Below are positions 14,233 to 36,367 of a stretch of DNA of 64,000 nt, in pieces; within the stretch, counting starts at the first letter, position 1; each line of letters opens with the position of its first letter. Under the pieces are notes generated by a model. That model had not been told where the DNA came from and ran no database searches. It saw only the letters and a program-made list of their open reading frames with translations. Source of the stretch: Candidatus Magasanikiibacteriota bacterium. GTDB lineage: Bacteria; Patescibacteriota; Patescibacteriia; Magasanikbacterales; UBA922. A program made the position numbers and the translations under genes. The stretch covers positions 175,926 to 239,925 of the forward strand of contig JACPSK010000001.1 of NCBI GenBank assembly GCA_016193335.1, given 5' to 3'.

Positions 14233-14247
14233 CTCTTTTATTCAGAA

Positions 14248-14273: not shown

Positions 14274-14279
14274 GTGGTT

Positions 14280-14828: not shown

Positions 14829-15519
14829 GGATGCGCTCTTTAAGGCCGAACACGACCAGATGATCCAACACGACATGGAAGCCTTCCACCAGCGGCGTGG
14901 AATCGGCCGGAACCACAATAGGAACATCCACCAAATCTTTCATGGGCCCGCCGTCAAAGCCCGAAAATCCTATGGTTTTGCCTCCCCTTTCTTTTATATA
15001 TTGAAGACCCTTCATGACATTCTGAGACCATTTGCCGGCCAGGTCTGTCCCACTGCCGCCATGGACGCTCAGGGCAATGCCCACGCCTTCTGGCTCATAA
15101 TAGGTTGCTAATTGATTCACATAAATGTTGTCCCAACCCCAGTCATTGATAAAAGCGCTACATTGAGGGATATTGTCCACCAGAGCCATAGCCTTGATCC
15201 CGCGGTCTCCGGGTTTTTCGGTGATAGTCTTCGTAAGATCCGCGGCCAAATGAGTGGCACTCGAAGCTGAGCCTCCATTGCCCATAATATAGACCCAGCG
15301 GCCCGCTTTCCAGGTCTCAAACAAAAGTTCGATGGCCTGATCGAGTTGCCGCGTATACTCTTGTTTTATCCTCTCTATGGTCCGATCCGCATCTTCGAGA
15401 AAAGTAGCGGCAAAAGAAGCATTTTTTTCTTCCATCATAAATGACATGTGATAATCTGAAGCGTCTGATCTCCCGCCATAATCATCGTTATAGACGGACA
15501 GAAAATCGAAATCATGCAA
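14797..15519 (-). CDS. gmhA: Sedoheptulose-7-phosphate isomerase (SIS domain)
   Basis: IMGNGGSASSATHLAADL, SVHGGSG and GFSGFDGG blocks match GmhA/LpcA. The true start may be an internal Met near 15450. Confidence 0.7.
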   Translation of the reverse strand: MHDFDFLSVYNDDYGGRSDASDYHMSFMMEEKNASFAATFLEDADRTIERIKQEYTRQLDQAIELLFETWKAGRWVYIMGNGGSASSATHLAADLTKTITEKPGDRGIKAMALVDNIPQCSAFINDWGWDNIYVNQLATYYEPEGVGIALSVHGGSGTDLAGKWSQNVMKGLQYIKERGGKTIGFSGFDGGPMKDLVDVPIVVPADSTPLVEGFHVVLDHLVVFGLKERIHEYKKTSSIS

Positions 15520-15522
15520 GCT

Positions 15523-16044
15523 CTAATCACAGTGAACGATAGCATGAACCGGCGTATTTTGCAAGCGGGTTCTCCCCGCCATGTTATCCATTTCAATGAC
15601 AAAAACCGCGCCAATAATTTCAGCGCCCGTCTTTTTGACCAATTTAATGGCCGCTGACATGGTTCCGCCCGTGGCCAAAATATCGTCTACCAATAATACC
15701 CTGTCTCCGGACTTCACATCTCTTTCAGAAATCTCTATGACTTGTGAAGCGTATTCATAGCTGTATTCCTGGGATAAAACAGGCGGAGCAATCTTGCCTT
15801 TTTTCCGAATAAGACCAAGACCAGACCCGATCCGATCGGCCAAAGCCGCGGCTATTATAAAGCCTCTCGACTCAATTCCAAGGACCATAGAGATGTCTTT
15901 TTCTCTATATGGAGAAGCGATCTCATCAATAAGTTTTTTATACAAAATCGGGTCAGCCAAAATCGGAGCTATGTCATAGGTCATTATTCCCGTTCTTGGC
16001 CAATCATTAATTTTTCTTATGTGTTCTTCGAAACTCAAATCCAT
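15523..16044 (-). CDS. apt: Adenine phosphoribosyltransferase
   Basis: PRTase motif VLLVDDILATGGT and a length of 173 aa. Confidence 0.8.
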   Translation of the reverse strand: MDLSFEEHIRKINDWPRTGIMTYDIAPILADPILYKKLIDEIASPYREKDISMVLGIESRGFIIAAALADRIGSGLGLIRKKGKIAPPVLSQEYSYEYASQVIEISERDVKSGDRVLLVDDILATGGTMSAAIKLVKKTGAEIIGAVFVIEMDNMAGRTRLQNTPVHAIVHCD

Positions 16045-16049
16045 ATGAA

Positions 16050-17174
16050 TTATTGTATTTCTTTTAGCAAGCCTTGCTCACGCATAGTCTTTTCCGTTAC
16101 CCTAAGAATTGAAGAAACATTTTCAAACTCTGTAATCCATTGCATATAATCATGCACCATATCTTCCAAACCAAAACGAGGCTCCCAACCCAAAGACCGG
16201 AGTTTATCGATATTCATGAGCGCGTGGCGGGATCCTCCCACGCGGTATCTATTGTTGATTTTGGGTTCAAAAGGGACAGCGGCCTCTTTGGCCACGCGCT
16301 CGGCCAACTCAAGGACACGAGTTCTCTCACCGCTTCCCACATTAAAAACTTCAAAATTCGCTTTTTCATCTTCGAGAACACACAGATGCGCCCGGGCCAC
16401 ATCCTGCACATGCACAAAATCTCGGATCTGTCCGGCGTCTTCATTCATTTGAATAGCTTCTTTATCCAAGACATTGGCCGCGAAGGCTCTGAGAGCCCCT
16501 GAATAATAATGCCGAAATGATTGCCTGGGACCAAGCACAATACTGTAGCGCAAAGCCACTCCGGGAATGCGGTACTGTCTTCCCAAAGTCATAAGTAATT
16601 TTTCGCTTGCCCATTTCGATATGGCGTAGGGGATGTTCGGATGAAGTTCGTCGTCTTCACGTTCTGGCAAAGGCTTTACTTCCTGTCCGCAAACGGGACA
16701 GTGCTGTTCCCAATCGCCCTTCTTCATGCGCGCTTCACTGCGCGGCGGGAGATACAGCAGACCGTGCTCCTCGCATTCAAATTTTCCTTCTCCGTAAACA
16801 GACTGGGAAGACGCCATGATAATTTTTGTGATAGACAATTTTTTATCTTCTATGCATTCAAAGAGCAAGGCAAGACTTTTTAGATTCACGTCTATATAGG
16901 TGCTGAAGTCAAGATGATAATCCATGTACGCGGCCAAATGAATCACCGAATCTATGCCTTCAAGAGCTTTGAGCCAGTCTGCCTTTTCGCGCACATCGCC
17001 CCGCATGAATTCAGCTTTTTTATGTATCCAATCCGGTAAAATCCCATTATGAGTCGGGGGGAGAAGAGAATCAAAAATACGAACCCTATACCCGGCCTCA
17101 AGCAAAAGATCGGCCACATGGGAACCTATGAACCCCGCACCACCGGTAAGAAGGACATGATGTTTATCCTTCAT
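16050..17174 (-). CDS. NAD-dependent epimerase/dehydratase with internal zinc-ribbon insertion
   Basis: [13 protein letters not shown] Rossmann motif, a YxxxK motif (YAISK) and a CPVCG-containing insert. Confidence 0.75.
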   Translation of the reverse strand: MKDKHHVLLTGGAGFIGSHVADLLLEAGYRVRIFDSLLPPTHNGILPDWIHKKAEFMRGDVREKADWLKALEGIDSVIHLAAYMDYHLDFSTYIDVNLKSLALLFECIEDKKLSITKIIMASSQSVYGEGKFECEEHGLLYLPPRSEARMKKGDWEQHCPVCGQEVKPLPEREDDELHPNIPYAISKWASEKLLMTLGRQYRIPGVALRYSIVLGPRQSFRHYYSGALRAFAANVLDKEAIQMNEDAGQIRDFVHVQDVARAHLCVLEDEKANFEVFNVGSGERTRVLELAERVAKEAAVPFEPKINNRYRVGGSRHALMNIDKLRSLGWEPRFGLEDMVHDYMQWITEFENVSSILRVTEKTMREQGLLKEIQ

Positions 17175-18165
17175 ATATTTGTTCTACGATTTTAAGAACA
17201 CTGAGCGCGTCTTTGCCGCTTGGAACCGGGTCTCTTCCCTCTTCAATGGCCAAGAGCAACTCTCTCATCTCCCGAACAAAAGAAAGCTCCGCGTCAGGGT
17301 TACACTCAAATATTTCTTCTCGCGGCAGAGCGCTATATGTTTCATCTCGAATTCCGAAGATTACTTTTTCAGTGCCGCCGTACTTTCTGCCCAGACCTTC
17401 AACATGAATATACCCGAAACTTCCATAAATTTCAAAACGATGCAAAGGTTTCCAATTCGACCAGCTGACATGAATGGAGGCGAGCTGTTTTTTTTTGCTT
17501 TTGAGGAGCAGAAAGGCATTATCTTCCACTTGCGCGGTCCAATGCAAATTTTCCACAAAACCCTTTACTTCGGCGATTTCTCCGAAAAAAGAGATAACCA
17601 TATCAACCATATGCACGCCCTGGTCAATGAGTTCTCCGCCTCCGGCCCATTCTTTGTTCATGCGCCATTCAGTGTTCATACCTTTGCGCGCTCCAAAACC
17701 ATACACTGCTCGAATAAATTGGATGTCTCCGATTTTCCCTTCGGTGAATAATTTTCGCGCGAGCAAAAAACCTTCGTGGAAACGATGATTGAAGCCGGCC
17801 ATATAGCGCAGATTCCGTGCTTGAGCAAAATTCAAAAGATCAAAAAGTTCCGTACTCGAAACGGCGCAAGGCTTTTCTGACATAACGTGTTTCCCGGCCG
17901 ATAGAGCGGCTCTGGAAATGGAGGCCAGATACTTGTGGGGCGTAGCCGCTATGACTATATCTATGTCTGTGCGTTTCAAAAGCTCTTCATAATCCGTATA
18001 TGCTTGGCAAGCAGGACCATAGACTCCGGCGAGTTCACGCGCCTTATCGCCATCTGTGTCCAGAACTGCCAAAAGATTCACCTCTCCCATCGAGGAGAGG
18101 GCCTTTACCCAGCGTTTTCCTATGCCTCCGGCTCCAACGAGCGCCACTGCGTATTTACCAATCAT
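17164..18165 (-). CDS. Gfo/Idh/MocA-family oxidoreductase
   Basis: VALVGAGGIGKRW Rossmann motif and the EKP motif (SEKPCA). Confidence 0.7.
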   Translation of the reverse strand: MIGKYAVALVGAGGIGKRWVKALSSMGEVNLLAVLDTDGDKARELAGVYGPACQAYTDYEELLKRTDIDIVIAATPHKYLASISRAALSAGKHVMSEKPCAVSSTELFDLLNFAQARNLRYMAGFNHRFHEGFLLARKLFTEGKIGDIQFIRAVYGFGARKGMNTEWRMNKEWAGGGELIDQGVHMVDMVISFFGEIAEVKGFVENLHWTAQVEDNAFLLLKSKKKQLASIHVSWSNWKPLHRFEIYGSFGYIHVEGLGRKYGGTEKVIFGIRDETYSALPREEIFECNPDAELSFVREMRELLLAIEEGRDPVPSGKDALSVLKIVEQIYEG

Positions 18166-18991
18166 ATCCTCTGTCTTTAGGTTTAATTCTTCGAGCGGTA
18201 TATATATCAGAAGTCATTATGTCTTCACGATGTTTTAGTATGGTATCAGGATCGTCCCAACGGGCGGCAAACAATTTACCTGTCACTCCGGCCATTTCTT
18301 CTGACGCTAAAAATAAACAAAATTGAGCGGCCAGCTCCGGACCTATGGTTTCCATTTTACCGGAAACCTGAGCACAGGCGTCTTGGTACACTGTTTCCCC
18401 CGCGCGTTCCGGACCCGCGGCTATTATACTATGCACAAAACCGGAATTGATAAGTCCCGGATATATGGCATTAACTGATATACATTCACCCGAAAGTTCC
18501 ACGGCAACAGACTCGGCAAAGCGGATCACCGCGGCTTTTGAAGCGGCATAGGAACTTAAATGCGGCAAAGGGCCTTCGCCCCCACCGGCGAATACGATCA
18601 CTTTCCCGTTCTCGCTACGCCTGAGCAAAGGCAAAGCATATTTCACTGCGTGCATGGTCCCAAATACATTTACTCTGAAAGCATCCTGCCAGTGATCGGA
18701 ATCCGCGTTTGTCAAAGCATTGATCTCGCCATAGATGCCGGCTGTTGTAACGAGAACGTTCAGATACTTGATCCGTGATTCAAGACCTGTAAAAAGGGCG
18801 CGCATGCCGCTAGCATCCGACACGTCTCCCACACAAACCTGGCAGGCTTCTCCCAATCTTTCTTTTATCTCATGCAACTTTTTTTCGTCGCGTCCCAGAA
18901 TAAAAACATGATAGCCCGCGTCCACAAAATGTTTCGCGACAGAGGAGCCTATCACTCCGCTTCCTCCGGTTATAAGCGCTGTTTGAATCAT
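18155..18991 (-). CDS. Classical short-chain dehydrogenase/reductase
   Basis: TGGSGVIGSSVA glycine motif and a YAASKAA catalytic YxxxK motif. Confidence 0.75.
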   Translation of the reverse strand: MIQTALITGGSGVIGSSVAKHFVDAGYHVFILGRDEKKLHEIKERLGEACQVCVGDVSDASGMRALFTGLESRIKYLNVLVTTAGIYGEINALTNADSDHWQDAFRVNVFGTMHAVKYALPLLRRSENGKVIVFAGGGEGPLPHLSSYAASKAAVIRFAESVAVELSGECISVNAIYPGLINSGFVHSIIAAGPERAGETVYQDACAQVSGKMETIGPELAAQFCLFLASEEMAGVTGKLFAARWDDPDTILKHREDIMTSDIYTARRIKPKDRGYDW

Positions 18992-19998
18992 ATGCTGTTC
19001 ATTTCTCTCGGCCTATGAATCATTACCTGCGTGCCGCTCGCTTCAACCCTATAGGGGACCTCATGGAATTTGTATTCTGTAAATAATCGGCGAACCGCAT
19101 CTTGAGATCCTTCCTGACAATAGACAAGAAAAAACCCGCCCCCGCCGGCACCGATGATTTTCCCCCCAAGAGCTCCACAGCGTTTCCCTTTTTCATATAC
19201 TTCGTCAAAGACATCATTACTCATCCGATCGGACATTTTTCTCTTGGTCTGCCAATGTTCGTCCATCAGACGTCCAAAGGTATCCAGGTCTCCCTGTTCA
19301 AAAGCCGATAAAATTCCCTTTCCAATCCGCTTTGTTTCGTGTTTGAGAGCAATCTTATCCGGTTTCTCGGCCCGTATATCATCTTGCTGTTCTGCCAAGA
19401 CCGCGGTGCTCGAGCGACGCATTGCCGTGTTGAAGAGCAAAGTCCGGCGTTCAAAGGCCTCTTGAGTCGAACGGGAAATTTTAGCGGGTAGCAGGCTTAC
19501 CGTACCATTTGCGGCTATGTCCAGCACGCAAAAATTTCCGAAAGACGCAAGATAAAAATCTTGTTTTCCGTCCGGCAGACCCAAATCTTCCGTGGCAATT
19601 TCAAAAGCTTCTTCAGCAAGCTGCAAACGGGAAAGATTTTCCCCTTTCAGAGCATGAAGGCCGTTCAAAAGACCCACCAAATAACTCGCGGAACTGCCCA
19701 AACCGGTGCCACCGGTAACATCAGCCATGGAAGAAATTTCAATCTGTTTGACAATTCCGGTCCGTTGAAGAGCGGCACGGGCAAGGTTATGCTTTAAATC
19801 CATCAGACGCTCGACCTCCTCGCTATCGCTATATTTCAAGCGAATCATCTGGTCGACAGGAGGACGGTTCAGACCGATATACATGTACAGGTTAAGCGTA
19901 ACCGCAAAAATAAAGCCGCCATGCTGTTCATAATAAGCGGGAAGATCAGTAGAACCTCCGCCAAGGGATAATCGGAAAGGCGTTCTGGTCAATATCAT
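18988..19998 (-). CDS. hddA: GHMP sugar kinase, D-glycero-D-manno-heptose 7-phosphate kinase-like
   Basis: N-terminal TRTPFRLSLGGGSTDL, GHMP motif TGGTGLGSSASYLVG and a C-terminal GAGGGGF motif. Confidence 0.65.
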   Translation of the reverse strand: MILTRTPFRLSLGGGSTDLPAYYEQHGGFIFAVTLNLYMYIGLNRPPVDQMIRLKYSDSEEVERLMDLKHNLARAALQRTGIVKQIEISSMADVTGGTGLGSSASYLVGLLNGLHALKGENLSRLQLAEEAFEIATEDLGLPDGKQDFYLASFGNFCVLDIAANGTVSLLPAKISRSTQEAFERRTLLFNTAMRRSSTAVLAEQQDDIRAEKPDKIALKHETKRIGKGILSAFEQGDLDTFGRLMDEHWQTKRKMSDRMSNDVFDEVYEKGKRCGALGGKIIGAGGGGFFLVYCQEGSQDAVRRLFTEYKFHEVPYRVEASGTQVMIHRPREMNSI

Positions 19999-20714
19999 AG
20001 AGCGCTCGAGTGAATTACATGGTTATCTTTTCCAAAGCGTTCTTTTAATAAGTGCTCGGCTCTGATCAAATCTTCTTTGCTTGAAATCCCTCCTATCACA
20101 TCCTTGGCCACAACCGCCACCATACGCCTTTTTTTCGCGAGCTGATCAACCATACTGCTCAGATAATATTCATCGTTCGCCCCAGACTGCGGTTCATAGT
20201 CAAAAATGTCTTTATCCAAAACCATCAAGCCACCCACGATAAGACCATGGAAAAGATGCTGCGGTTTTTCGATCACGCTCAGAATCGTGCCGTCCTCCCC
20301 GGTAATAACAACTCCATGGTTCCAAGGATCGTTCACTTCACAACACAAAATGCTCAAAGGATATTTCAAACAAGCATCAAAATCAGCCCGCCTTGGCAAT
20401 TCATCTCCATACAGCAACACAAAGCGATCATCTCCAATAAAGGGTTTGGCGGCCAAAAAACTATAAGCGGTTCCGAGCGCCGATCCTTCGACATAACTAA
20501 TGGAACAGCCGTGAAACACGGAACCGCAATATTCACGGATTTGTTCACCCAGATAATGCACCACTATGACGGCTTCAGTGATTTCTTCGGGAAAAGATAA
20601 AAAAATATGATCCAAAAAAGTTTTGCCTGCCACAGACAGCAAAGGTTTAGGCGTCTTGAGCGTAAGCGGCCTCATGCGTTTTCCCTCTCCGGCCGCGAGT
20701 ATAACGGCTTTCAT
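19995..20714 (-). CDS. Sugar-1-phosphate nucleotidyltransferase (HddC-like guanylyltransferase), copy 2
   Basis: MKAVILAAGEGKRMRPLTLKTPKPLL. There is a 4-bp overlap with hddA downstream and with the GT2 gene upstream. Pathway context (gmhA, gmhB, hddA) suggests heptose-1-P is the substrate. Confidence 0.65.
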   Translation of the reverse strand: MKAVILAAGEGKRMRPLTLKTPKPLLSVAGKTFLDHIFLSFPEEITEAVIVVHYLGEQIREYCGSVFHGCSISYVEGSALGTAYSFLAAKPFIGDDRFVLLYGDELPRRADFDACLKYPLSILCCEVNDPWNHGVVITGEDGTILSVIEKPQHLFHGLIVGGLMVLDKDIFDYEPQSGANDEYYLSSMVDQLAKKRRMVAVVAKDVIGGISSKEDLIRAEHLLKERFGKDNHVIHSSAL

Positions 20715-22564: not shown

Positions 22565-24088
22565 TTACCAATAAGTATAAAACAATATTTGAAAGGCAAA
22601 ACTTTGAAATATGAGTAAGCACAAAAGCGAGGCGGATTTCGTTTCAGACTCTTGTTTGATCATAGAGGACAGTACCGGCAAAAACAATGGAAACACAAAA
22701 AGCCAGAGCCGCCCAACCTCACCCTGAAATATGCCTATGGCCAAAAGAAAAAGAACAAAAACATACCCTATATAATGATAATGTCGAGCCGTCTTATTTT
22801 TATCACGAAAACGCTGAAAAAAACCGGAAATATGCGCAATGCCCATGGCGATAGCAAAAGCAAGTATATTCATGAGGAAAAAAACCACATAGATTCCCAA
22901 GGAAGAAAAATTACTCTGCACTGTTTCGGAATTAGCGCCTCTCGCCGCGAGAAAATTTTCCAGTATCGAATAACCGGTCGAAACGTACAGAAAAGCAAAA
23001 AAACTCAGAAAAAAAACAAGACCAAGACTCAAATTCAGCGAAAAATCGTAAGCCGATCGTGTCGGATTATTTTTGTAATGCTTTTGCCATATGTGCCACA
23101 ACATATACAAAAAAACAGGAGCGACAAGCAAAAAAAGGAAATTCGAAAATAAAGCAAAAGCCGCGGCCAAACCGCCAAAGGCAGATCCAATCCGGGATGA
23201 TTTCCAGCCTTTGAGGCAGAGCCCCAAACTCAGCCATGTAATGAACAGAAAAAAAGCCTCAAGAGAACTCACGCTCATCAATACCAGGCCCGGAAAAAAA
23301 ATAAACAACTGAAGCGAAGATCTCAGGTCATTTTCATCCATGAATTCCCTCCAAAAAAGATAGATCGGAAAGACAGAAAGACCTGAAACCAAAGCCAAGA
23401 CAATGGCCACGCCCGGATATTCAAATTTGAAGAACTGCCGGAGCCCGTACAAAAACAAAATATAACCCGGCGGATGGGTGCTGCTGTGCCGCGCGTAAGA
23501 AAGATCGGGATCTGAAACGGTCGCGACATAATCATGGAGAAAACTCTTTGTATTTTCAATATGGGGAAGATAGCCAGTGTACTCCCAATAACTACGCGAT
23601 AAGGAATCCGTGACGCTCGCCCAACCCGAACGCATGCCGTTTATCCCCAAGCTAAACAGTGTAAATACAAAGGCCAAAACGGCCAAGTAAGGCCAAATTT
23701 TCCATTTTTTGAAATATTTCCGGAAGGCAAAAAATAAAAAAACGATAAAAACCGTGTACAAAACCCACCAGGGAGCCAAAATCTGCGGAGAAGGAAGGGC
23801 ATACATAATCAGTCTGTCTGCTATATACCCTTTATATGAGAGGCTGAGAACATATTTCCCCAAAACAACCAAGAACATTAAAAACATGCTGTAATAAAAT
23901 ATTTGCCGCGTTTCTTTTTCTTTCCAAAAAAAATGATGGTAAACAAGGCAAAAAAGTATGGTTGCCAATGTCAAAATAAGGCCGGCCCAGAGCACAGACT
24001 CAGCCTTTTCATAGAGCGCCAGACGGTACTCCTCCCCGAACAGCGATGAAATGAGATTCAGAAATATACTCTTAAAATAGTCCGCCAT
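22565..24088 (-). CDS. Polytopic membrane protein, possibly GT-C-type glycosyltransferase
   Basis: About 11 TM helices and an HPPGY loop motif. No soluble catalytic domain is present. Confidence 0.4.
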   Translation of the reverse strand: MADYFKSIFLNLISSLFGEEYRLALYEKAESVLWAGLILTLATILFCLVYHHFFWKEKETRQIFYYSMFLMFLVVLGKYVLSLSYKGYIADRLIMYALPSPQILAPWWVLYTVFIVFLFFAFRKYFKKWKIWPYLAVLAFVFTLFSLGINGMRSGWASVTDSLSRSYWEYTGYLPHIENTKSFLHDYVATVSDPDLSYARHSSTHPPGYILFLYGLRQFFKFEYPGVAIVLALVSGLSVFPIYLFWREFMDENDLRSSLQLFIFFPGLVLMSVSSLEAFFLFITWLSLGLCLKGWKSSRIGSAFGGLAAAFALFSNFLFLLVAPVFLYMLWHIWQKHYKNNPTRSAYDFSLNLSLGLVFFLSFFAFLYVSTGYSILENFLAARGANSETVQSNFSSLGIYVVFFLMNILAFAIAMGIAHISGFFQRFRDKNKTARHYHYIGYVFVLFLLAIGIFQGEVGRLWLFVFPLFLPVLSSMIKQESETKSASLLCLLIFQSFAFQILFYTYW

Positions 24089-27145: not shown

Positions 27146-28819
27146 TCAATTTAAACGACGGATAATAATCTCAGGCCCAAGCTGTCGAGTTCTCAACAGA
27201 TTCGGCAAGCCGCCGTTAAACCCGTCGGTAAAAGGCAGGCCTTCCGGCGTCTCATCTCCGTGAATGTATTCCAGTTCGGCCCCTGAGGCGAGAAAGGAGG
27301 AATCAGCTTTTTTGCTCAATAAAAATTCAGGGTTAAAAACAATATATTCATATCCCTGGGTTTCCAGATAGTCGGACAAATGAGCAAAAAAAGAAGAATC
27401 GGAAACCGCTTCCAGATTCAAAGCATGAAATGCTTTTCTATTTTGTTGAGTCATTGTCAATTGCTTTTCGGCCTTATCCGCGTTCCGCAAGGCTTGGGGC
27501 TGGATGGATTCGAGCTCCATAACCGCAGATGGGAGACCGGGCAAGCGAGTAAGCGGAGCAAGGACAGCAATCTTACTGCCGCCAGAAACCTCTCTGTATA
27601 TCCAATCCAAGGCCTGAATTCTGGAGTCATTTCGCAAAAACAGCAGATCGAGATAGAGAAGCGGCGCAATCATCAAAGCTATGAGAGAGAAAACAAGGAA
27701 AAACTGAAATCTTCTTCTAAGTCGCTGAGATATACACCATAACCCAAATCCGGCACATAAAGCAAATAGAGGATAAAAAGGAAGAATGTAGCGATCCATG
27801 TTGAGAAACGAATAATAAAATATGGCGACATACGAAGCCAAAAAAATAATCCCGACAAAAAAAAGACGTTTATACTTTTGAAAACCGGCCAAGGCTCCAA
27901 AAAATGCAAAAACAGAAAGCAAAGGATCCCCCTTTATCACACTCCGTATATACATCCAATAATCGTGGAACAAACCGCTCAATGTTTTGTGATAAAAAAT
28001 AGAGTCAGGCGCGTTTCTCGCCACAAAGAAAGGCTGGGGCCATAATACATATACCAGTAACACCAAACAAACAAAGACTGCTATCGACCCCCAAAACCAT
28101 AACGTCTTGACATCTTTGAACAAAGACCGCCGATCATAGATCAGATACCAAAGCACGATAAAAAGCGCTGTCAGACCCATTTGGGGAGCTATACCCACCC
28201 CCATGCCGCTCAGAATTGCCGACACGAAATAGCGTTTGGCAGAAGGCCATTCTTCATGGAGCAAGACGAGCATAAGCGCGGATAACAAAAAAGCCGCATA
28301 TATCCAATGCCGGGCCCAGTGGGAAAAATTACTGTGCAAAAATGATAGGGCCAAAAAACCGGCCGCGTAGAGAGCCATGGTCTTGTTCTTGAACAGACGA
28401 AGGCCCAGCGCGTAGCTGAGGTACACGGTTCCCGTGCCGACCAGAACCGCCAAAAAACGCGCCATCAAAAAAAATGCCGAAGGGTCACTGCGCATCAAAA
28501 GACTTAGAGTGTTTACATCCACACCTTTTATGAAAAAACTGATGCCGATATATGCCAAAAAGGGAAACAGGTACAAATAAGAGATAAAAGGAGTGTAATA
28601 AAATGTTAAAGCGAACACTTCTCTATGCGCAGCTGGAATTATGGTCTTGAGTTCCAACATTTTAAGAGCACCAAAGATCAATGTTGGTTCATCTCCGACG
28701 AGCCAGAGTGGCAAGCCGAAACCGATGCCCGTGAGTCGAATGATAAAGGCGACAATGAGGATAGCCACAATGAGCGCCTGGGGATACTTGTTTAAGATAC
28801 TTCTCATATGTATTCTCAT
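27146..28819 (-). CDS. GT-C-type glycosyltransferase (ArnT/PMT_2-like)
   Basis: LVGDEPTLIFGALKML matches the ArnT DE..Y/F..IA..ML loop motif after TM1. It has about 12 TM helices plus a C-terminal soluble domain. Confidence 0.65.
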   Translation of the reverse strand: MRIHMRSILNKYPQALIVAILIVAFIIRLTGIGFGLPLWLVGDEPTLIFGALKMLELKTIIPAAHREVFALTFYYTPFISYLYLFPFLAYIGISFFIKGVDVNTLSLLMRSDPSAFFLMARFLAVLVGTGTVYLSYALGLRLFKNKTMALYAAGFLALSFLHSNFSHWARHWIYAAFLLSALMLVLLHEEWPSAKRYFVSAILSGMGVGIAPQMGLTALFIVLWYLIYDRRSLFKDVKTLWFWGSIAVFVCLVLLVYVLWPQPFFVARNAPDSIFYHKTLSGLFHDYWMYIRSVIKGDPLLSVFAFFGALAGFQKYKRLFFVGIIFLASYVAIFYYSFLNMDRYILPFYPLFALCAGFGLWCISQRLRRRFQFFLVFSLIALMIAPLLYLDLLFLRNDSRIQALDWIYREVSGGSKIAVLAPLTRLPGLPSAVMELESIQPQALRNADKAEKQLTMTQQNRKAFHALNLEAVSDSSFFAHLSDYLETQGYEYIVFNPEFLLSKKADSSFLASGAELEYIHGDETPEGLPFTDGFNGGLPNLLRTRQLGPEIIIRRLN

Positions 28820-29522: not shown

Positions 29523-29738
29523 CTAATACCATTGGCCTGAAGATTGTTTTTGATAATGGTCCTGAAATTCTCTGCGTCCCTTTATCTTAAGCCACCAATC
29601 TTTATGTTCAAGATACCATTCCACCACATCCCCCAAACTCTGGTCTATTGGCAAAGCTGGCGCCCATGTAAACTGAGATCTGAGCTTATCGCCATTCACG
29701 GCATAACGCGTGTCCGCTCCCGGACGGTCGCTGATATG
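29523..29738 (-). pseudogene. C-terminal fragment (about 70 aa) of dTDP-glucose 4,6-dehydratase (RmlB)
   Basis: ISDRPGADTRYAVNGDKLRSQF...VVEWYLEHKDWW matches the RmlB C-terminus DRPGHDRRYAID...TV.WY..N..WW. The upstream part of this ORF is antisense to the transposase remnant and unrelated to RmlB. Confidence 0.6.
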
Positions 29739-29744
29739 TGTGGT

Positions 29745-29909
29745 ATGTTCAGCTACCGTGATACTGATCTCGATACGATCACCGCCGCCCAGATCAGACG
29801 CGTTGAAGACAAAATCAATAACCGACCAATGAAGTGTCTCAACTATCAAACTCCGAACGAGGCCTATGCAATTGAAATGAACAAAATTATGCCTAACCGC
29901 AATCTATGA
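29745..29909 (+). mobile_element. IS30-family transposase, C-terminal remnant of about 55 aa
   Basis: DTDLDTITAAQIRRVEDKINNRPMKCLNYQTPNEAY matches the IS30 transposase tail ...EL..IA..LN.RPRK.L.+KTP.E.F. No DDE core is present. Confidence 0.55.
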
Positions 29910-29916
29910 AATTAAT

Positions 29917-30228
29917 TTATTTTTTTATCCACAGGTTGCACTTGTAAATTGAATGTGGGTAGTTTGATCGCCCACGAGCCTCAGCGGTTTTCAAGTATTC
30001 ACGGTCCTCGGTATTGTATAATTTTACCACTTCATCAAGGGTCAATGTTTCCCTGGTTTGAATAAGTCCGCAACGGATACATTTTACCATTGGCAAGCAA
30101 ACGCCATAATCTTTATCAGTGACTTTAAAAGTGGCGCACTCATATAAACTAACATACCGCTTAGCAAAGGATACAGGAGTTAGGTCACCTTGGCAAATTT
30201 CGCAATTGATACTCAGATTATTTGGCAT
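29917..30228 (-). pseudogene. N-terminal zinc-ribbon fragment of an NDP-sugar C-methyltransferase (TylCIII-like)
   Basis: CEICQGDL...KCIRCGLIQ resembles the CxxCG...CxxCGLVQL putative zinc-binding N-domain of sugar C-methyltransferases. The SAM-binding domain is missing, and the ORF stops 8 bp from the IS remnant. Confidence 0.45.
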
Positions 30229-30239
30229 AGCGCTAAAAA

Positions 30240-30815
30240 TTATTGAACAAGCAGAGAAAAATTACTGCCCTTTACTAAAAAAATACGGTCAGCTGCATCC
30301 ATAAGTGGACGATCTTCTTCTGAATCGGTAAAAACATCAAAATGTTCCAGATTCTCGGTTTTTAAACGATCAACTTTCGCCATATGCCAACAAGTAGAAA
30401 ATCTATTAAAATCAGGATCATACTCCGTACCATGAACAATCCAGCCTTTAATATTTTTGCGGGCTAAAATTGCTTCAACCAAATCTTTCCAGGCCGCGGT
30501 TGACACATACACACGGTTATATTGTTCGTTTATATACCGAACCAAATCTTCATTAACAAAGGGAAATAATTTTTCCGCATACTCATCGGTAACACGCGCC
30601 GCGCCGCGGCGGTAGACTTCCTTAAATAAAGCATGACGAAATTTTCTCCTAAAAAAAACTTGACGCTGATACGGCAAAATGAATCGCACGCCAAACAGGA
30701 CGATTCCCCACCATAAAATAATCGGGGAACTATAGGTATAGCCGTCACGAAGCATACGCATGGTGGAGTCAACCGTAAGCAAAGTTTTATCAAAATCAAC
30801 CACTGCCGTAGACAT
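30240..30815 (-). CDS. HAD-superfamily hydrolase (phosphatase)
   Basis: Motif I VVDFDKTLL (DxDxT) and motif IV FTDSEEDRPLM. Confidence 0.65.
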   Translation of the reverse strand: MSTAVVDFDKTLLTVDSTMRMLRDGYTYSSPIILWWGIVLFGVRFILPYQRQVFFRRKFRHALFKEVYRRGAARVTDEYAEKLFPFVNEDLVRYINEQYNRVYVSTAAWKDLVEAILARKNIKGWIVHGTEYDPDFNRFSTCWHMAKVDRLKTENLEHFDVFTDSEEDRPLMDAADRIFLVKGSNFSLLVQ

Positions 30816-30824
30816 ACAAAAAAT

Positions 30825-31766
30825 TTATTGACGGATAGAGTATCCTATAAAATGATTTTCCAGAAAAAAATGCAATCTGGGAAAATCAACCCACAACAAT
30901 AAACTGACACTCATGGTTAATAATAAAATGTACAGCATAAACCACCTCTCTCGATAAAGTTTTTCCGGCCGCTGTGCTGGTGAATCAGAATTCATCCCCA
31001 AAGACAGATACCAACCGAATAAAATTGAAAATAAAGGCAAACTCAAAAGAAGTTCAATCCGGTGTTTAATTATAAATACACCAAAGAAAAAGGCAAAACT
31101 CATGGCGTAAAAAAGAATGGATACAAGCAAATTATTTTCCGTGTAAAAACGAAATGACCGACGATAGAGTACGGCCGTACTCCGATCGCCGATAAACCGC
31201 AATTCGGCATACCGCTTCACGGCCATAAGGAATGCCCCGCCCATCCAATATGCAACCAATAAACTCACAGGTGGTAAATAGGCGCTGGTCACAACAAACC
31301 ATCCTAAGGCAAAACGGATAGGATTATTAATTGATTCGGATAATACATCCATGTACATTTTGTCCTTGGTTCGAAACGGTTTTACATTATATAAAAAACC
31401 CATGACCAAAAGAAACAACGCAGCAGCCAAAAAATAATAAGAAATAAAATAGGCAATACTTAAACCTGTTACCGCCAATACTGCATATTCAACAAAAACC
31501 AACTTTGCCTTGATTCTACCTGTTACCGACGGACGATTTTTTTTAAGGGGGTGATATTTATCAAATTCAGCGTCCAGCCACTCATTTATGACATAGTTAG
31601 CGGAAGCAATGATACATACACTTATCAAAGCCAAAAGACCTACCGCAAGCAGACGGTAAGAGAACGTATCGGTCAGCCACATAGCCACGACTACACCGGG
31701 CAACATGAATATATTTTTAAACCAATGTGAGGGTCTGGCAATAGAGATATAATCTTTTAAACTCAT
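30825..31766 (-). CDS. UbiA-family polyprenyltransferase-like membrane protein (candidate polyprenyl-phosphate phosphoribosyltransferase)
   Basis: About 8 TM helices. An N-x-x-x-D-x-x-x-D motif (NEWLDAEFD) follows an RP...W...F..PG segment, and a second acidic motif KDKMYMD is present. The gene abuts the HAD hydrolase gene. Confidence 0.55.
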   Translation of the reverse strand: MSLKDYISIARPSHWFKNIFMLPGVVVAMWLTDTFSYRLLAVGLLALISVCIIASANYVINEWLDAEFDKYHPLKKNRPSVTGRIKAKLVFVEYAVLAVTGLSIAYFISYYFLAAALFLLVMGFLYNVKPFRTKDKMYMDVLSESINNPIRFALGWFVVTSAYLPPVSLLVAYWMGGAFLMAVKRYAELRFIGDRSTAVLYRRSFRFYTENNLLVSILFYAMSFAFFFGVFIIKHRIELLLSLPLFSILFGWYLSLGMNSDSPAQRPEKLYRERWFMLYILLLTMSVSLLLWVDFPRLHFFLENHFIGYSIRQ

Positions 31767-31859
31767 AAAATCAAGCTCTAAAAAGACCCTGAAACTACAA
31801 ACATAATAACATAAACCCATCTTTATGACAATGGCTGCGGAATCAAAAAACAGCGGCTT

Positions 31860-32618
31860 TCATCTTTCATATTCTCCCCTCCCGAGTCTGAGCCGAATAT
31901 GAATTATATCCCAGATCATCATCAAGGTGTCTGCGACAAGGCGCACACTGCTTTCTTTATGATGAATCAATTCCACCGGAAAATCTAAAAATAAAAGGCT
32001 GTTTTTCCGAGCGATAACAAACATTTCTATATCAAAAGCAAAACGGTCCACGCGTGAACATTCAAGAAGCAAAACAGCAAATTCTTTCCTCATCATTTTT
32101 ATGCCGCATTGAGTATCCGGAATTCCTGAAAGCAGGACGGATTGCACGACATATTTAAAAAATGTTCTGCCCGCGTTTCTGATAAATCCATACTTTTTTC
32201 GTGATTGCGAAGCCGGATGACTCCGAGACCCATAGAGCAAGGACAAATCCGTTTGCGCCCGCATCTGACCAAGCATATGGCCAAACATCGCTATGCCATA
32301 AGGCAGATCCGCGTCAGTAAAAACAAGAAAAGCCCCGCGCGCCTTCCGGAATCCTTCTTTGAGCGCCCCGCCTTTCCCCTTGTTTTCGGGGAGATGCAAA
32401 ATCGTATAATCTCTTATGGATCCGGCATACGATCGGGCGATCTCGAGAGTCCTGTCTGAGCTTCCGTCATCAACCACTATAATTTCCACACCATATCCGC
32501 AGGAGACCGCATAATCCCGAAGCGTGCGCAAAGAAGATTCCAAAAAGGCCTCCGCGTTCAAGACCGGAATAATAATCGACACATCAATAGTCCTATTTAT
32601 TATCTGGGGTTCTTTCAT
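31860..32618 (-). CDS. GT2 glycosyltransferase
   Basis: VSIIIPVLNAE...VVDDGSSDRT...TDADL motifs. The internal start MKEPQ at 32618 removes the overlap with the upstream gene. Confidence 0.7.
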   Translation of the reverse strand: MKEPQIINRTIDVSIIIPVLNAEAFLESSLRTLRDYAVSCGYGVEIIVVDDGSSDRTLEIARSYAGSIRDYTILHLPENKGKGGALKEGFRKARGAFLVFTDADLPYGIAMFGHMLGQMRAQTDLSLLYGSRSHPASQSRKKYGFIRNAGRTFFKYVVQSVLLSGIPDTQCGIKMMRKEFAVLLLECSRVDRFAFDIEMFVIARKNSLLFLDFPVELIHHKESSVRLVADTLMMIWDIIHIRLRLGRGEYER

Positions 32619-34056
32619 ACAAAGTATAATGCCCTCGCTGAGCCGTGGGCCTATAGGATTCCAAAATAGTTGTTTCCAAGTTAGCCAATCTAAGTTCTGA
32701 AAGCGAAGCGCCGGAGACGATATAAGAAAATAAATTCCCGTTTTTATTTTCCAATCCGTCAACCCCGAAATGCAAAACCGGATTGATTTGGAGATATTGA
32801 TATATCTCGAACTCATCCGACAAAAAAGCAAGAGAGGGACTATTTATCATCAAAATATCAGAACCAAAATCCACATGATCTTTTACGGTCATCTCCATAT
32901 CTTGAACTTCTTGTGAAAAATATAAAGGTTCATCCACTTTTTTGATAAACAAAAAAGTTTGGAGCGAAACGAGACAAGCCAAGATAGCAAGTGCGTATGT
33001 TCTGCCGATGAGTTTAAAAAGCGCGAAAGGAAAAAACAAAAATAAAAGCAGGTGAGCAGGGAAAAAGTACCGGTACCATCCCGGCGTCTTCAGATACCAA
33101 AGAACATTCAATAGTATGAATACAAAAAGAATCAGCTCTGATCCCGAGAGAAAATCACCTTTCCGAAAACGCTTTATAAATGAAAGGCCGCTTATTAAAA
33201 ACAAAAACAGGAAATGAAGCGGCGTGCTTTCCCGCAAAAAACGAAGGGCATTCCCCGCGACAAGCCCCCCTATATTCGCTTCCGCGTAAGAATTGGCGTA
33301 AAAATCAAGCGTTTCCTTGAGTCCCGCCATACTGAATTCCGGCATGATAATGAAAAAATATATGAGAAGCGGGGGAAGCAATCCGGCGCCAAAAACCAAG
33401 GACTGCGCCAAAACTCCTTTTTTATGTTTCAAAAAACGATATGCCTCATATACGAATACGGCGGGAAGAATCAATACAAAAAAAGGCTTGGTGGCCACAC
33501 TCAAACCTATCAGTATGCCTGAAACAAAAAACCTTCGGAGACCCTGAGCGCCATAAAAAGCACAAACGCCTAAAAGCAAAAAACTTAAGCCCGGAACCTC
33601 GCCAAGCGCTGCTTTGCCGTTTCCATAAAAAGGAATAAAACTTATAATCAAAACAAGAGTCCATAAGGCGGCTTCTTTGTTATGGTAAACCATTCGAACA
33701 AAAAAATACGCGGTTCCGGAGAATAGCAACATATACAGGATCATGGGTATTCGAGCGGCCCCAATGCCCGAACCGAAAAATTTCAAAGACAGAGCCACCG
33801 GAATTATCAAAGGGTAATTGCTCGTTATCAAAAAAGACCGCTCTTCCACAAATTGTCCGGGGCCGATTTTTAAGCTAAATATCCAGTCTTCGGCCAGACT
33901 TTGGGCTATGCCCATGTTTATCCCTTCGTCAAACCAGGTGGCAGGCGAATACGAGATTCGCCAGAAGCCAAAAAATAGCAAGACAGCAAAAAGTAAACCC
34001 AGAAGTACCGTATGCCTGGGTACATAAGAAAAAACCTTTTGAAACAGAGTCTGCAT
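32593..34056 (-). CDS. GT-C-type glycosyltransferase (ArnT/PMT_2-like)
   Basis: WFDEGINMGIAQSL motif after TM1, a KP-type motif SVATKPFFVL and about 12 TM helices. Confidence 0.6.
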   Translation of the reverse strand: MQTLFQKVFSYVPRHTVLLGLLFAVLLFFGFWRISYSPATWFDEGINMGIAQSLAEDWIFSLKIGPGQFVEERSFLITSNYPLIIPVALSLKFFGSGIGAARIPMILYMLLFSGTAYFFVRMVYHNKEAALWTLVLIISFIPFYGNGKAALGEVPGLSFLLLGVCAFYGAQGLRRFFVSGILIGLSVATKPFFVLILPAVFVYEAYRFLKHKKGVLAQSLVFGAGLLPPLLIYFFIIMPEFSMAGLKETLDFYANSYAEANIGGLVAGNALRFLRESTPLHFLFLFLISGLSFIKRFRKGDFLSGSELILFVFILLNVLWYLKTPGWYRYFFPAHLLLFLFFPFALFKLIGRTYALAILACLVSLQTFLFIKKVDEPLYFSQEVQDMEMTVKDHVDFGSDILMINSPSLAFLSDEFEIYQYLQINPVLHFGVDGLENKNGNLFSYIVSGASLSELRLANLETTILESYRPTAQRGHYTLYERTPDNK

Positions 34057-34074
34057 ATTAGTGAATCTATCTTT

Positions 34075-35415
34075 TCAGCTGAATAACCGATACAGATGTT
34101 CGTGTACCGCGGGCCAGAAAAAAATAAAATCCAACACACTTATAATAAGCAGCAAAGAAAAAACTCTATACAAAGCCTTTAAAGCCTCTTTCTTTCTTTC
34201 ATAGAGCAGAACCAGAAAATAGGATCCAAAAAGCGCCAAGAAAGGATAAATTTGAAGACGATACCTGGATTCTACCACGCTTGGTAAAAGAAGGATCGGA
34301 GCGCTCAAACCGAGCGCGATACAATAATACAGTATGGTGCTTTTCTCTTTTTTAGAAAGCAACATTCCCGAAAAACCGCTCACAAACAAAATTCCTATGC
34401 CGATAAGCGAGCTCAAAACAAAGGCTATTTGCCCGATCCCGTTTTGATAAAACCAAAAACCCATCGGGCGTATTAAACTGAAATAACGGAGAAATCTGAG
34501 AAAAGACAGCTTGATAAAATGTGAGGGATCTTCTTTCAGAACCCGCAAAAATTCCTGGCGTGCTTTTTCTTTTAAATCAAAGGAACCTTCCTCGTTGAGA
34601 TATTCTGTCAAAGGATTGTACCCACCCGCGATCTGCCCGCCATTGGCGCTTTCAATATTACCGATCCACAAATTATATTCTCCGATTAGAGTGGTGGGAA
34701 TAAAATCCCCATAAATCGCATGATTTCGGAGAGCCCAGGGAATCAAAACGATAACAAAAAAACAAAAAAACAAAAACAACTGCGCATAATATTTACGTAT
34801 TGCATAAAAAAACAAAAAAACAGGCACAAAAAGCAATATGGGCGGCCGTGTGAGTATCGCGAGGCCTGTCAGGAATCCGAGTAAGGCCGCGGCGATTTTT
34901 CTCTCAGGTCGGCTAAAAATCTTCACAAAGACGTAGAGTGTCGCTATCGTAAAAAAAAGATACAAGGTCTCAGTCATAAGCATCGCGGATATTTCTATCA
35001 AATCAGGATGCAAACCAAAGAGACCCAAGGCCACAAAAGCGATGGCATTTTTGCTCGTTTGTTTCTCGAACACCATTCTCGCGATCAGAAAAATAAGGTA
35101 CGCGGAAACTGCGTGCAGGAAAGCTTGAATAAGCCATACGGCCTCGTAATAATGGCCGAATACAAAATATATCCCGGCGAGAAAAAATTCATAAGCAGGC
35201 CCTGCGCGAAGTATGGCGCCATCAAATTCATAGGATTTCGCCGCATCTTCCCTGAAACCCTGGCCATCAAGAATATTCAAAGCTATTCGATCGTATGCTT
35301 TCGCGTCGACCACGGGGTTTATCTTATAATAAAAAGAGTATCCTGCGGATAGCAAAAAAATGACAAGTAAAAACGCGGCGAGCCATTTACGCTCTTTGTT
35401 CCATTTCATAAGCAA
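34075..35415 (-). CDS. GT-C-type glycosyltransferase (ArnT/PMT_2-like)
   Basis: VVDAKAYDRIALNIL aligns with ArnT DEARYAEISREML. An LTRPPILLF segment resembles the KPPL motif. Many TM helices. Confidence 0.6.
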   Translation of the reverse strand: MLMKWNKERKWLAAFLLVIFLLSAGYSFYYKINPVVDAKAYDRIALNILDGQGFREDAAKSYEFDGAILRAGPAYEFFLAGIYFVFGHYYEAVWLIQAFLHAVSAYLIFLIARMVFEKQTSKNAIAFVALGLFGLHPDLIEISAMLMTETLYLFFTIATLYVFVKIFSRPERKIAAALLGFLTGLAILTRPPILLFVPVFLFFYAIRKYYAQLFLFFCFFVIVLIPWALRNHAIYGDFIPTTLIGEYNLWIGNIESANGGQIAGGYNPLTEYLNEEGSFDLKEKARQEFLRVLKEDPSHFIKLSFLRFLRYFSLIRPMGFWFYQNGIGQIAFVLSSLIGIGILFVSGFSGMLLSKKEKSTILYYCIALGLSAPILLLPSVVESRYRLQIYPFLALFGSYFLVLLYERKKEALKALYRVFSLLLIISVLDFIFFWPAVHEHLYRLFS

Positions 35416-36367
35416 TCATCCGTTCTATCAAGGACAAAAACGAATACTCAGGTTTCCAGCCAAGAGAGACAGCTATGCGCTCATTGGACGCGCCGAGTTC
35501 ACTCGTGTCTCGCTTGCGTATAAAATCAGAATTGACCCGAACATAAGCCTCCCAATCCTTAATCCCCAGTGCTTCAAAAGCCACCTTAAGAAGTTCTCTC
35601 AGAGTATGCTGTTCTCCGCTTGAAATAATAAAATCTTCAGGCTTCTTTGCTTGGAGCATCATCCACATGGCCCGCACGTAATCACCCGCGAATCCCCAGT
35701 CTCTGCTCACATTGAGGTTCCCCAGCTCCAGATATTTTTTATTTCCTTTCTTAAGATCAGCCACTCCTTTGATAATTTTTTTAAACACAAAGGTATCCGG
35801 CCGAAGCGGAGATTCGTGTTGAAACAAAATGCCGTTTACCGCGAATAGCCCATATTGTTCACGAAAATTGATTACGGAAAAATGCGCGGCAAGTTTTGTG
35901 ACGCTGTATAAATCGATAGGTTTAAACTCAGATTGGTCTTCGGTGACTCTCAGAGTTTCGAGTTTTTCTTGTTCATAGATTTTACCGCTTGAAGCCTGAA
36001 ATATCCGTGTCTCTCCGCTGTAACGCCGCGCTGATTCAAGCATATTCACCACTGCATCACAGTTTGTCTGAAAAGCTTCGAGCGGCCGCTCCCAGACTCC
36101 CGTCACGCTACTTAAAGCGGCGAGATTGTAGTATTCATGGGGCTGCGTTTTTTTGAGTATATCTTCTACGCGAGGATAATCCCTCACATCGCATTCCAAA
36201 ATTTCCACCTGATTTTGGATACCAAAATGATCCAAACGCCACAAAGCCTCCCGAGTGGCACGGCGGCACAGACCAATCACCCGGTAGTTTTTTCGCAACA
36301 AAAAGTCCGCTAAATAAGCGCCATCTTGGCCTGCGATTCCGCTAATCAGAGCTATTTTGTCCGCCAT
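35387..36367 (-). CDS. gmd: GDP-mannose 4,6-dehydratase family (may act on GDP-heptose)
   Basis: ALISGIAGQDGAYLADFLL and ILFQHESPLR blocks match Gmd, whose consensus is ILFNHESPRR. Confidence 0.8.
   Translation of the reverse strand: MADKIALISGIAGQDGAYLADFLLRKNYRVIGLCRRATREALWRLDHFGIQNQVEILECDVRDYPRVEDILKKTQPHEYYNLAALSSVTGVWERPLEAFQTNCDAVVNMLESARRYSGETRIFQASSGKIYEQEKLETLRVTEDQSEFKPIDLYSVTKLAAHFSVINFREQYGLFAVNGILFQHESPLRPDTFVFKKIIKGVADLKKGNKKYLELGNLNVSRDWGFAGDYVRAMWMMLQAKKPEDFIISSGEQHTLRELLKVAFEALGIKDWEAYVRVNSDFIRKRDTSELGASNERIAVSLGWKPEYSFLSLIERMIAYEMEQRA

Follow-up and report, generated by a model that had tools for sequence, protein, structure and literature searches.

A probable polyprenyl-phospho-ribofuranose pathway predicted from a UbiA–HAD–GT-C locus in a Patescibacteria glycan-biosynthesis region

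What is a gene for a UbiA-superfamily membrane protein doing inside a region devoted to glycan biosynthesis? The question is raised by a block of five genes in the window, as we call the whole 64-kb stretch of DNA analysed here, in which the UbiA-family gene is followed by one for a hydrolase of the haloacid dehalogenase (HAD) superfamily and preceded by genes for a family 2 glycosyltransferase (GT2) and two glycosyltransferases of the GT-C fold. We consider it probable that the UbiA homolog, the HAD protein and one or more GT-C enzymes carry out the synthesis of polyprenyl-phospho-ribofuranose and its transfer onto a surface glycan. The UbiA homolog would act as a membrane phosphoribosyltransferase placing ribose-5-phosphate from cytoplasmic phosphoribosyl pyrophosphate (PRPP) onto polyprenyl phosphate, and the HAD hydrolase would strip the 5-phosphate to give polyprenyl-phospho-ribofuranose. 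This lipid-linked sugar would be flipped to the outer face of the membrane, where one or more of three GT-C enzymes would attach the pentofuranose to a glycan or glycoprotein of the cell surface. The numerous GT4 and GT2 enzymes of the region would assemble the backbone of this glycan. The pathway is based on homology, substrate-contact residues, predicted fold, gene neighbourhood and gene fusion; from these we infer the use of PRPP, the lipid that accepts the ribose phosphate, the substrate of the phosphatase, the GT-C that takes up the donor, the kind of pentose and the glycan that receives it.

Pathways of this kind are known from the three-component pentofuranose systems of Citrobacter youngae (Kelly, Duong, Nothof, Lowary and Whitfield, PNAS 2024; PMC11127046). 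There, ORF15 joins an N-terminal HAD phosphoribose phosphatase (PRP) to a UbiA-type polyprenyl-phosphate phosphoribosyltransferase (PPPRS) and converts PRPP into polyprenyl-P-ribofuranose; the making of this donor for a GT-C by PPPRS and HAD phosphatase was shown biochemically (PMC11127046). A MATE protein (ORF14) was proposed as donor flippase, and the O antigen receives its ribofuranose in the periplasm from ORF12, a GT-C that founded family GT136. Epimerases, either DprE1/DprE2 or short-chain dehydrogenases/reductases (SDRs), turn the ribofuranose donor into xylo- or arabinofuranose, and a system of Rhizobium CCGE531 is listed in the supplement (PMC11127046).

The five genes of the block run on the minus strand from 35409 to 30240 in the order GT-C, GT-C, GT2, UbiA superfamily, HAD, so that the open reading frames (ORFs) and the Pfam scan agree with the gene order given in a preliminary description of this DNA; its reading of an NxxxDxxxD motif was also confirmed, as INEWLDAEFD in the translation. 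Two neighbouring pairs overlap, by 26 and 23 nt, and in the other cases 9, 18 or 93 nt lie between the genes; the HAD gene starts 9 nt past the UbiA stop. Tight packing and a common direction throughout are consistent with one operon of the UbiA, HAD, GT2 and GT-C genes inside a glycan-biosynthesis region of about 45 kb. This region further encodes numerous GT4 and GT2 proteins and enzymes of nucleotide-sugar metabolism, together with an AsnB-like amidotransferase, a Wzy_C protein and a heptose pathway. In NCBI, a protein from a metagenome-assembled genome of Candidatus Magasanikbacteria (Patescibacteria group) has exactly the sequence of the UbiA protein.

Among sequences in the PDB, the closest match of the UbiA homolog is Rv3806c of Mycobacterium tuberculosis, a decaprenyl-phosphate phosphoribosyltransferase (E = 4.8e-14), followed by a digeranylgeranylglyceryl phosphate (DGGGP) synthase (3e-4), and a profile built from 20 homologs also places Rv3806c first (1.2e-18, compared with 2e-7 for AfUbiA and 0.89 for ApUbiA). 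The AlphaFold model (pLDDT 88.8) again has Rv3806c (8j8j) as its top structural match (template modelling (TM) score 0.77/0.82, root-mean-square deviation 3.4 Å), with AfUbiA second (TM score 0.67). The top NCBIfam models are PRK08238 (NF006088, 74.5 bits, cut-off 351) and three decaprenyl-phosphoribose (DPPR) synthase equivalogs, NF008976, NF008977 and NF008978 (69.1, 74.0 and 68.6 bits, cut-offs 474, 234 and 207), none of whose cut-offs is reached. As controls, proteins from Flammeovirgaceae (241.9 bits) and Halostagnicola (240.5 bits) lie above the NF008977 cut-off, and the CCGE531 protein scores 609 bits with PRK08238.

The residues of Rv3806c in contact with PRPP, Mg2+ and decaprenyl phosphate are R22, K28, Y70, N73, D77, K87, R90, Q135, Y138, K143, Y157, K191 and K208 (PMC10994848). 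The window protein keeps 11 of these 13: R22, K28, Y70, N73, D77, K87, R90, Y138, K143, K191 and K208 align with R, K, Y, N, D, K, R, Y, K, K and R, respectively, and all of them except K208 are near-invariant across the clade to which the window protein belongs. The first Asp-rich motif is present, and the second is replaced by KRYAEL, the same as in Rv3806c. It should be noted that the preliminary description had named, as one result that would speak against its idea, grouping of the homolog with MenA, UbiA or DGGGP synthases together with an aromatic-type site. Rv3806c proved to be the closest solved relative by sequence, profile and predicted fold, a neighbour-joining (NJ) tree places the family beside phosphoribosyltransferases and apart from E. 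coli UbiA, MenA and CyoE, and the PRPP and acceptor-phosphate residues of Rv3806c are kept in the window protein and absent from E. coli UbiA and MenA (K28, Y70, K87 and K191/R192).

These data also bear on a quite different reading, in which the UbiA homolog is a conventional prenyltransferase of quinone, haem O, chlorophyll or ether-lipid synthesis and the HAD protein an unrelated housekeeping phosphatase. The Pfam UbiA match and the name 4-hydroxybenzoate polyprenyltransferase carried by some homolog records at JGI would fit it, but the NCBIfam models for UbiA, MenA, MqnP, CyoE and DGGGP synthase give 20–53 bits with partial coverage, against 68–74 bits for the phosphoribosyltransferase models. 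The KRYAEL replacement, the presence of the pyrophosphate K/R cluster and of the acceptor-phosphate residue K191, and the position of the gene in a glycan cluster, where across phyla it pairs with HAD, GtrA and GT-C genes, count against this reading too, and we regard it as very improbable. Judged by its sequence, the window UbiA homolog is neither an aromatic nor a lipid prenyltransferase; homology, modelled fold and active-site residues qualify it as a predicted PPPRS. The window also encodes an adenine phosphoribosyltransferase (15523–16044, NF002636 192 bits), indicating that the organism uses PRPP.

An NJ tree was calculated with bootstraps on Poisson and BLOSUM distances, Kimura distances being saturated. 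As references we took a Tsukamurella DPPR synthase (beside a PAP2 phosphatase), a Flammeovirgaceae DPPR synthase (beside DprE1-/DprE2-like genes), a haloarchaeal homolog, the PRK08238 fusions of Rhizobium CCGE531 and NGR234, E. coli UbiA, MenA and CyoE, and PDB fragments. The family of the window protein is monophyletic (bootstrap 89–100%) and forms the sister of the clade of validated or annotated phosphoribosyltransferases, which itself has about 100% support. Given the simple tree and its small number of outgroups, we take the sister relationship as indicative, not proven. The clade is large, with 462 clusters at 50% identity (E ≤ 1e-30) and at least 574 matches among species-representative genomes, and its members are about 55–65% identical between phyla. 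A phage collection held no member of the clade, giving a single partial match of 34% identity.

The second component is the HAD hydrolase, in which alignment with homologs shows D7, D9 and T11 of motif I (DFDKT) and D164 and D168 of motif IV (DSEED) to be conserved; motifs II and III were read by eye from the sequence. We predict that it is the phosphatase removing the 5-phosphate of polyprenyl-P-ribose-5-P. Its full length aligns at 30% identity (E = 3e-20) with the HAD domain at the N-terminus of P0234, a HAD(PF12710)–UbiA fusion protein in the same UbiA clade that aligns with PRK08238 over both domains (100 bits, under the cut-off). In the window the two are separate genes, not one polypeptide of the PRK08238/ORF15 type.

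For the wider clade, 82 loci from other genomes were collected, which together with the window make 83. Searches of the 82 loci by phmmer with the window HAD, GT-C and 581-aa proteins gave no match, because the partner proteins evolve too fast, and therefore five genes on each side of the UbiA homolog were clustered de novo and labelled with Pfam; a word-indexed search with the window HAD protein likewise returned, beside the protein itself, only five close relatives. In 62 of the 83 loci, drawn from many phyla, a HAD gene is found no more than 3 kb from the UbiA homolog, and in 41 the two are direct neighbours; of the 21 loci lacking a nearby HAD gene, several are short contigs. In the closest relatives, with UbiA proteins 77–79% identical to that of the window, HAD directly follows UbiA. 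The adjacency of UbiA and HAD, whose absence from related genomes had been put forward as a further argument against the proposal, is thus kept across phyla, is matched by one fusion and is more than chance. The HAD proteins are of unrelated types, HAD_2 in 43 loci and PF12710/HAD-IB in 21, and the use of two unrelated types in one role argues that phosphatase activity, rather than one particular protein, is needed beside the UbiA homolog.

Other neighbours fit a lipid-linked sugar as well. GtrA occurs within 5 kb in 27 of the 83 loci and GT-C genes in at least 47. In two loci (L024 and L049) a UbiA gene of the clade stands beside close orthologs (264–295 bits) of the GMC oxidoreductase and epimerase of CCGE531, which suggests that the clade can fill the same functional slot as the PRK08238-type synthases; L024 additionally has a separate HAD and a GtrA gene. 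On plasmid pRL10 of Rhizobium johnstonii 3841, the genes RL_RS28975–RL_RS28965 (L091, 8950–10999) form a UbiA–HAD–GtrA operon with overlapping stops and starts, for which a literature search found no published function. The flanks of the pRL10 operon hold toxin–antitoxin genes and a cadherin-domain protein, with no adjacent GT-C.

The third component would be a GT-C enzyme, and here the window offers a choice. The 444-aa GT-C is 53% identical to GTC443 of the related locus L087, and the 487-aa one is 31% identical to a PMT_2 protein in the same L087 cluster; both pass the PMT_2 cut-off and have 10–11 hydrophobic segments. A third, of 553 aa, has no Pfam match of its own and qualifies only through its PMT_2-positive ortholog, GTC559 of L087, to which it is 36% identical over 99% of its length (E = 1.6e-106). 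In L087, L088 and L089 the start of the GTC559-type gene overlaps the HAD stop, and since its ortholog directly follows HAD in these relatives, the 553-aa protein is the best synteny-based candidate for the pentofuranosyltransferase. The module had originally been confined to 30240–35415; the five genes within that span stand, and the third GT-C, outside it, belongs to the module too. The gene order in the closest relatives is MBOAT, 379-aa protein, UbiA, HAD, GT-C, GT4, GT-C, GT4, AsnB, GT-C. We also compared the 444-aa protein with UbiA-flanking GT-Cs of Proteobacteria and Contubernalis as possible orthologs; BLAST identities of 24–28% over partial length indicate a relationship at the family level only.

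Whether these GT-Cs serve the UbiA–HAD pair depends on what other donors they might receive. Under one alternative they would use polyprenyl-phospho-hexoses made by GT2 enzymes, in the style of GtrB/DPM1 with GT-C, and would have no functional link to UbiA–HAD. The product of that pair would then be consumed by some unrecognised enzyme or in another process, and the adjacency would simply reflect a large glycan cluster. The window does contain suitable GT2 genes: the product of 37594–38301 matches AglJ-type dolichyl-phosphate glycosyltransferases (E = 5.8e-34) and ArnC, that of 9090–10016 has transmembrane segments at its C-terminus and is encoded two genes away from a polytopic protein of 596 aa, and the 252-aa GT2 of the block is weakly similar over its full length to the NCBIfam models for ArnC (E = 2.3e-10) and PpgS (E = 1.6e-7), possibly being a polyprenyl-phosphate hexosyltransferase. 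In addition, the GT-C families beside the UbiA homolog vary by lineage. Yet in the closest relatives the ortholog of the third GT-C overlaps the end of the UbiA–HAD pair without an intervening GT2, GT-C genes accompany the clade in more than half of the loci (the count given above), and one member of the clade, P0207, carries a 560-aa polytopic C-terminal extension of its UbiA domain that is possibly a GT-C. A complete uncoupling of the GT-Cs from UbiA–HAD is therefore quite unlikely in our view. The two schemes are compatible, as there are three GT-Cs and three candidate donor synthases in the window, and the likeness of two or three of the GT2 proteins to polyprenyl-phosphate glycosyltransferases makes it probable that some of the window GT-Cs receive hexose donors. 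In the closest relatives no GT2 occupies the position of the 252-aa GT2. Another clade member, P0128, has a GT2 domain fused ahead of its UbiA domain; this domain shows no meaningful similarity to the 252-aa protein, and the fusion is uninformative for it.

Three polytopic proteins of the window with 9–13 hydrophobic segments (3859–5892, 10770–12560 and 22565–24088) have no Pfam or NCBIfam match; that of 10770–12560 is the 596-aa protein near the GtrB-like GT2. They may be GT-C-like enzymes, polymerases or a flippase.

Returning to the proposed ribofuranose donor, the nature of the pentose has to be considered. No DprE1-like protein was found by phmmer in the window or the 82 related loci with the Flammeovirgaceae DprE1 and a Tsukamurella FAD oxidoreductase as queries, and the Flammeovirgaceae DprE2 query gave nothing in the window and one weak DprE2-like match among the 82 loci. 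Since DprE1/DprE2 are not nearby, ribofuranose rather than arabinofuranose is the more likely pentose and our default prediction. The same two first steps could nevertheless be followed by epimerisation or modification of the lipid-linked ribose before transfer, so that the GT-Cs would add arabinofuranose (through DprE1/DprE2-like enzymes), xylofuranose (through an SDR epimerase) or a methylated or oxidised pentose. Epimerases do diversify the pentose in the systems of Kelly et al. (PMC11127046), and the window has an extended SDR directly upstream of the GT-Cs as well as several other SDR/epimerase genes. That SDR, however, resembles GDP-mannose dehydratase over its full length (TIGR01472), nothing beyond its position speaks for a role as lipid-pentose epimerase, and it probably belongs to nucleotide-sugar synthesis.

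Modification by other enzymes finds its support in the wider clade. A Methyltransf_23 protein with an N-terminal Cys-rich motif is encoded within 5 kb in 24 of the 83 loci (including L004, L007, L011, L021, L031, L036, L046, L047, L060–L062, L066, L072 and L073), and four proteins (P0141, P0149, P0172 and P0178) carry such a methyltransferase in front of the UbiA domain, as an N-terminal fusion; its product could, for instance, be a methylated lipid-linked pentose. A GMC oxidoreductase, which may oxidise the lipid-linked pentose, is found within 5 kb in 22 loci, and 19 of these, mostly from Pedobacter and its relatives, also carry a small protein with an N-terminus that by eye resembles a twin-arginine (Tat) signal. 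In the window itself, however, the methyltransferase gene is reduced to a 103-aa remnant. Given this and the DprE1/DprE2 searches, we hold an epimerised or otherwise modified pentose at this locus to be unlikely.

The GMC loci include a fixed cassette of HAD, UbiA, GMC oxidoreductase (about 480 aa) and a 140-aa Tat-like protein, with a divergent GT-C and a GT14 'Branch' enzyme (L012, L019, L022, L023, L027–L029, L032, L041, L042, L044, L053, L058, L063, L064, L070 and L075–L077). A GMC oxidoreductase is also present in the PRK08238 systems of Rhizobium CCGE531 and NGR234.

A broader idea is that the window clade as a whole makes a chemically distinct lipid-linked donor, for example a methylated or oxidised pentofuranose, or a sugar taken from a donor other than PRPP. 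It is suggested by the sister position of the clade, by its invariant G (for Q/N/T) and N (for Y/F) at two contact positions, by the methyltransferase fusions and adjacency and by the pair of GMC oxidoreductase and Tat-like protein downstream in Bacteroidota; we consider it doubtful, though deserving of mention. If true, lipid-linked pentose donors would be made by a second family of pathways, one that is very widespread and reaches the Patescibacteria.

The polyprenyl-phospho-ribofuranose pathway remains our preferred explanation, and several observations weigh against it. The UbiA homolog is just about 20–23% identical to validated enzymes, and its scores of 68–74 bits fall well under the cut-offs of 207–474 for the DPPR-synthase and PRK08238 models. 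Of the two contacts not kept, Q135, which binds O3 of the ribose and is Q, N or T among known enzymes too, is replaced by G, and Y157, a contact to the 5-phosphate and the acceptor phosphate, by N. The clade is sister to the validated synthases, not inside them, with moderate NJ support of 53–77% for the joint clade. The window HAD resembles the PRP domain of the ORF15-type fusion of CCGE531 at motif I only (E = 0.18), and the PMT_2-type GT-Cs have no likeness to the 658-aa presumed GT-C of that system. As for a flippase, no called gene in the window belongs to the MatE or GtrA Pfam families, and neither a GtrA hidden Markov model nor phmmer with SMR/GtrA proteins gave a match there. Finally, two DPM1/GtrB-like GT2 genes could feed hexose donors to the same GT-Cs.

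How does the locus compare with known systems? It shares with C. youngae O1/O2 a UbiA-superfamily enzyme like a phosphoribosyltransferase, a HAD protein and GT-Cs in a polysaccharide cluster, as well as the lack of DprE1/DprE2 nearby, which makes ribofuranose the default pentose. It differs in that the HAD protein is a separate gene product, not an N-terminal domain, and not detectably like the PRP of ORF15; the GT-Cs are PMT_2-type and not GT136-like, no flippase gene was recognised in the window, and the host belongs to the Patescibacteria, without outer membrane or O antigen. Compared with the PRK08238-type fusions, the window UbiA protein is about 19% identical to the UbiA part and falls in a sister clade.

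The mycobacterial decaprenyl-phospho-arabinose (DPA) pathway consists of Rv3806c, the PAP2 phosphatase Rv3807c, DprE1/DprE2, the GtrA-like Rv3789 and the Emb/Aft GT-Cs. The window has the same logic, from PRPP through a lipid-linked pentose to a GT-C, and Rv3806c is the closest solved structure, with the same predicted fold and 11 of 13 contacts; the phosphatase is HAD as opposed to PAP2, the GT-C families differ, DprE1/DprE2 are lacking in the window, and the UbiA homolog stays below the DPPR-synthase equivalog cut-offs. Canonical arrangements of the DPA type were found on plasmids of Tsukamurella and Flammeovirgaceae. The analogy with mycobacteria drawn in the preliminary description therefore holds for the UbiA homolog and not for the phosphatase, since the HAD pairing is of the C. 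youngae ORF15 type. The R. johnstonii operon shares the UbiA clade (41% identity) and the HAD gene immediately downstream, and differs by its GtrA, its HAD-IA-type hydrolase and the lack of an adjacent GT-C.

Taken together, the UbiA relationship and the HAD adjacency support a lipid-linked pentose donor system as first suggested for this locus, but the idea as such was already published (PMC11127046). The locus is a further example of the kind of pathway described in 2024, in a lineage where it had not previously been pointed out, and it brings no new mechanism, as the chemistry, the HAD coupling and the hand-off to a GT-C were all shown by Kelly et al. (PMC11127046). What it adds is an extension of the three-component pentofuranose pathway to the Patescibacteria, whose envelope glycans are uncharacterised and for whose small genomes a 45-kb glycan cluster with at least three GT-Cs is a sizeable investment. 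It also gives a testable function to a large group that NCBI names just 'UbiA prenyltransferase family protein' and whose hosts include Pedobacter, Hymenobacter, Mesorhizobium and Rhizobium plasmids. The pRL10 operon offers a proxy in a culturable and genetically tractable rhizobium.

The likely gene starts in Table 1 were taken from calls, with Pfam labels, on the identical public contig. The UbiA-family ORF is open up to 31820, and its homologs begin at M19.

Table 1. Features of the UbiA–HAD locus and its surroundings; the Pfam cut-offs are 26.1 bits for PF13231 (PMT_2) and 27 bits for PF12710.
Feature	Position	Strand	Evidence
GDP-mannose 4,6-dehydratase-like extended SDR	35387–36367	minus	PF16363 E = 1.3e-89; TIGR01472 264.6 bits, cut-off 415
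GT-C fold glycosyltransferase, 444 aa, ~10 transmembrane segments	34075–35409	minus	PF13231 PMT_2 34.9 bits, PMT 23.1 bits
GT-C fold glycosyltransferase, 487 aa, ~11 transmembrane segments	32593–34056	minus	PF13231 PMT_2 29.5 bits
GT2 glycosyltransferase, 252 aa	31860–32618	minus	PF00535 E = 2e-27
UbiA-superfamily membrane protein, 313 aa, predicted PPPRS-like	30825–31766	minus	PF01040 E = 4.8e-24
HAD-superfamily hydrolase, 191 aa, predicted phosphatase	30240–30815	minus	PF12710 E = 4e-9, 37.6 bits
Gene scar between HAD and rmlC	29523–30228	both	methyltransferase remnant, dehydratase fragment, possible IS30 tail
Third GT-C-like membrane protein, 553 aa, ~10 transmembrane segments	27146–28807 (ORF open to 28891)	minus	PMT_2-positive ortholog

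The scar lies between the HAD gene and the third GT-C, ahead of an intact rmlC, at the place where relatives have the GT-C directly after HAD. It consists of three parts. The methyltransferase remnant (29917–30228, minus strand) is the N-terminal zinc-ribbon portion and scores 75.5 bits with a hidden Markov model of the clade-associated Methyltransf_23 proteins, a C-terminal fragment of a dTDP-glucose 4,6-dehydratase (29523–29849, minus strand) covers positions 265–320 of the 321 of TIGR01181 (E = 1.5e-13), and a possible tail of an IS30 transposase (29544–29909, plus strand) gives a weak match to model positions 242–267 of 267 (E = 0.035). The Pfam scan confirmed neither the IS30 nor the dehydratase (RfbB) fragment; NCBIfam confirmed RfbB and supported IS30 weakly.

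The G+C content over the UbiA and HAD genes is 0.391 (window positions 30001–32000), compared with about 0.43–0.45 in the flanks. This low value and the roughly 60% identity of the UbiA protein to homologs from unrelated phyla are compatible with horizontal acquisition.

Elsewhere in the window, a GDP-heptose-type pathway at 12587–20714 comprises a SIS_2 isomerase, a GHMP kinase, a HAD phosphatase, a nucleotidyltransferase and a transaldolase/FSA gene, and the adenine phosphoribosyltransferase gene is embedded in it, an odd site for a gene of purine salvage. At 54164–57973 and 58240–60157, a family-less protein of 1257–1269 aa near a gene for an extracytoplasmic function (ECF) sigma factor and a family-less protein of 446–451 aa are encoded, and several small unannotated ORFs occupy 43.9–49.8 kb of the window.

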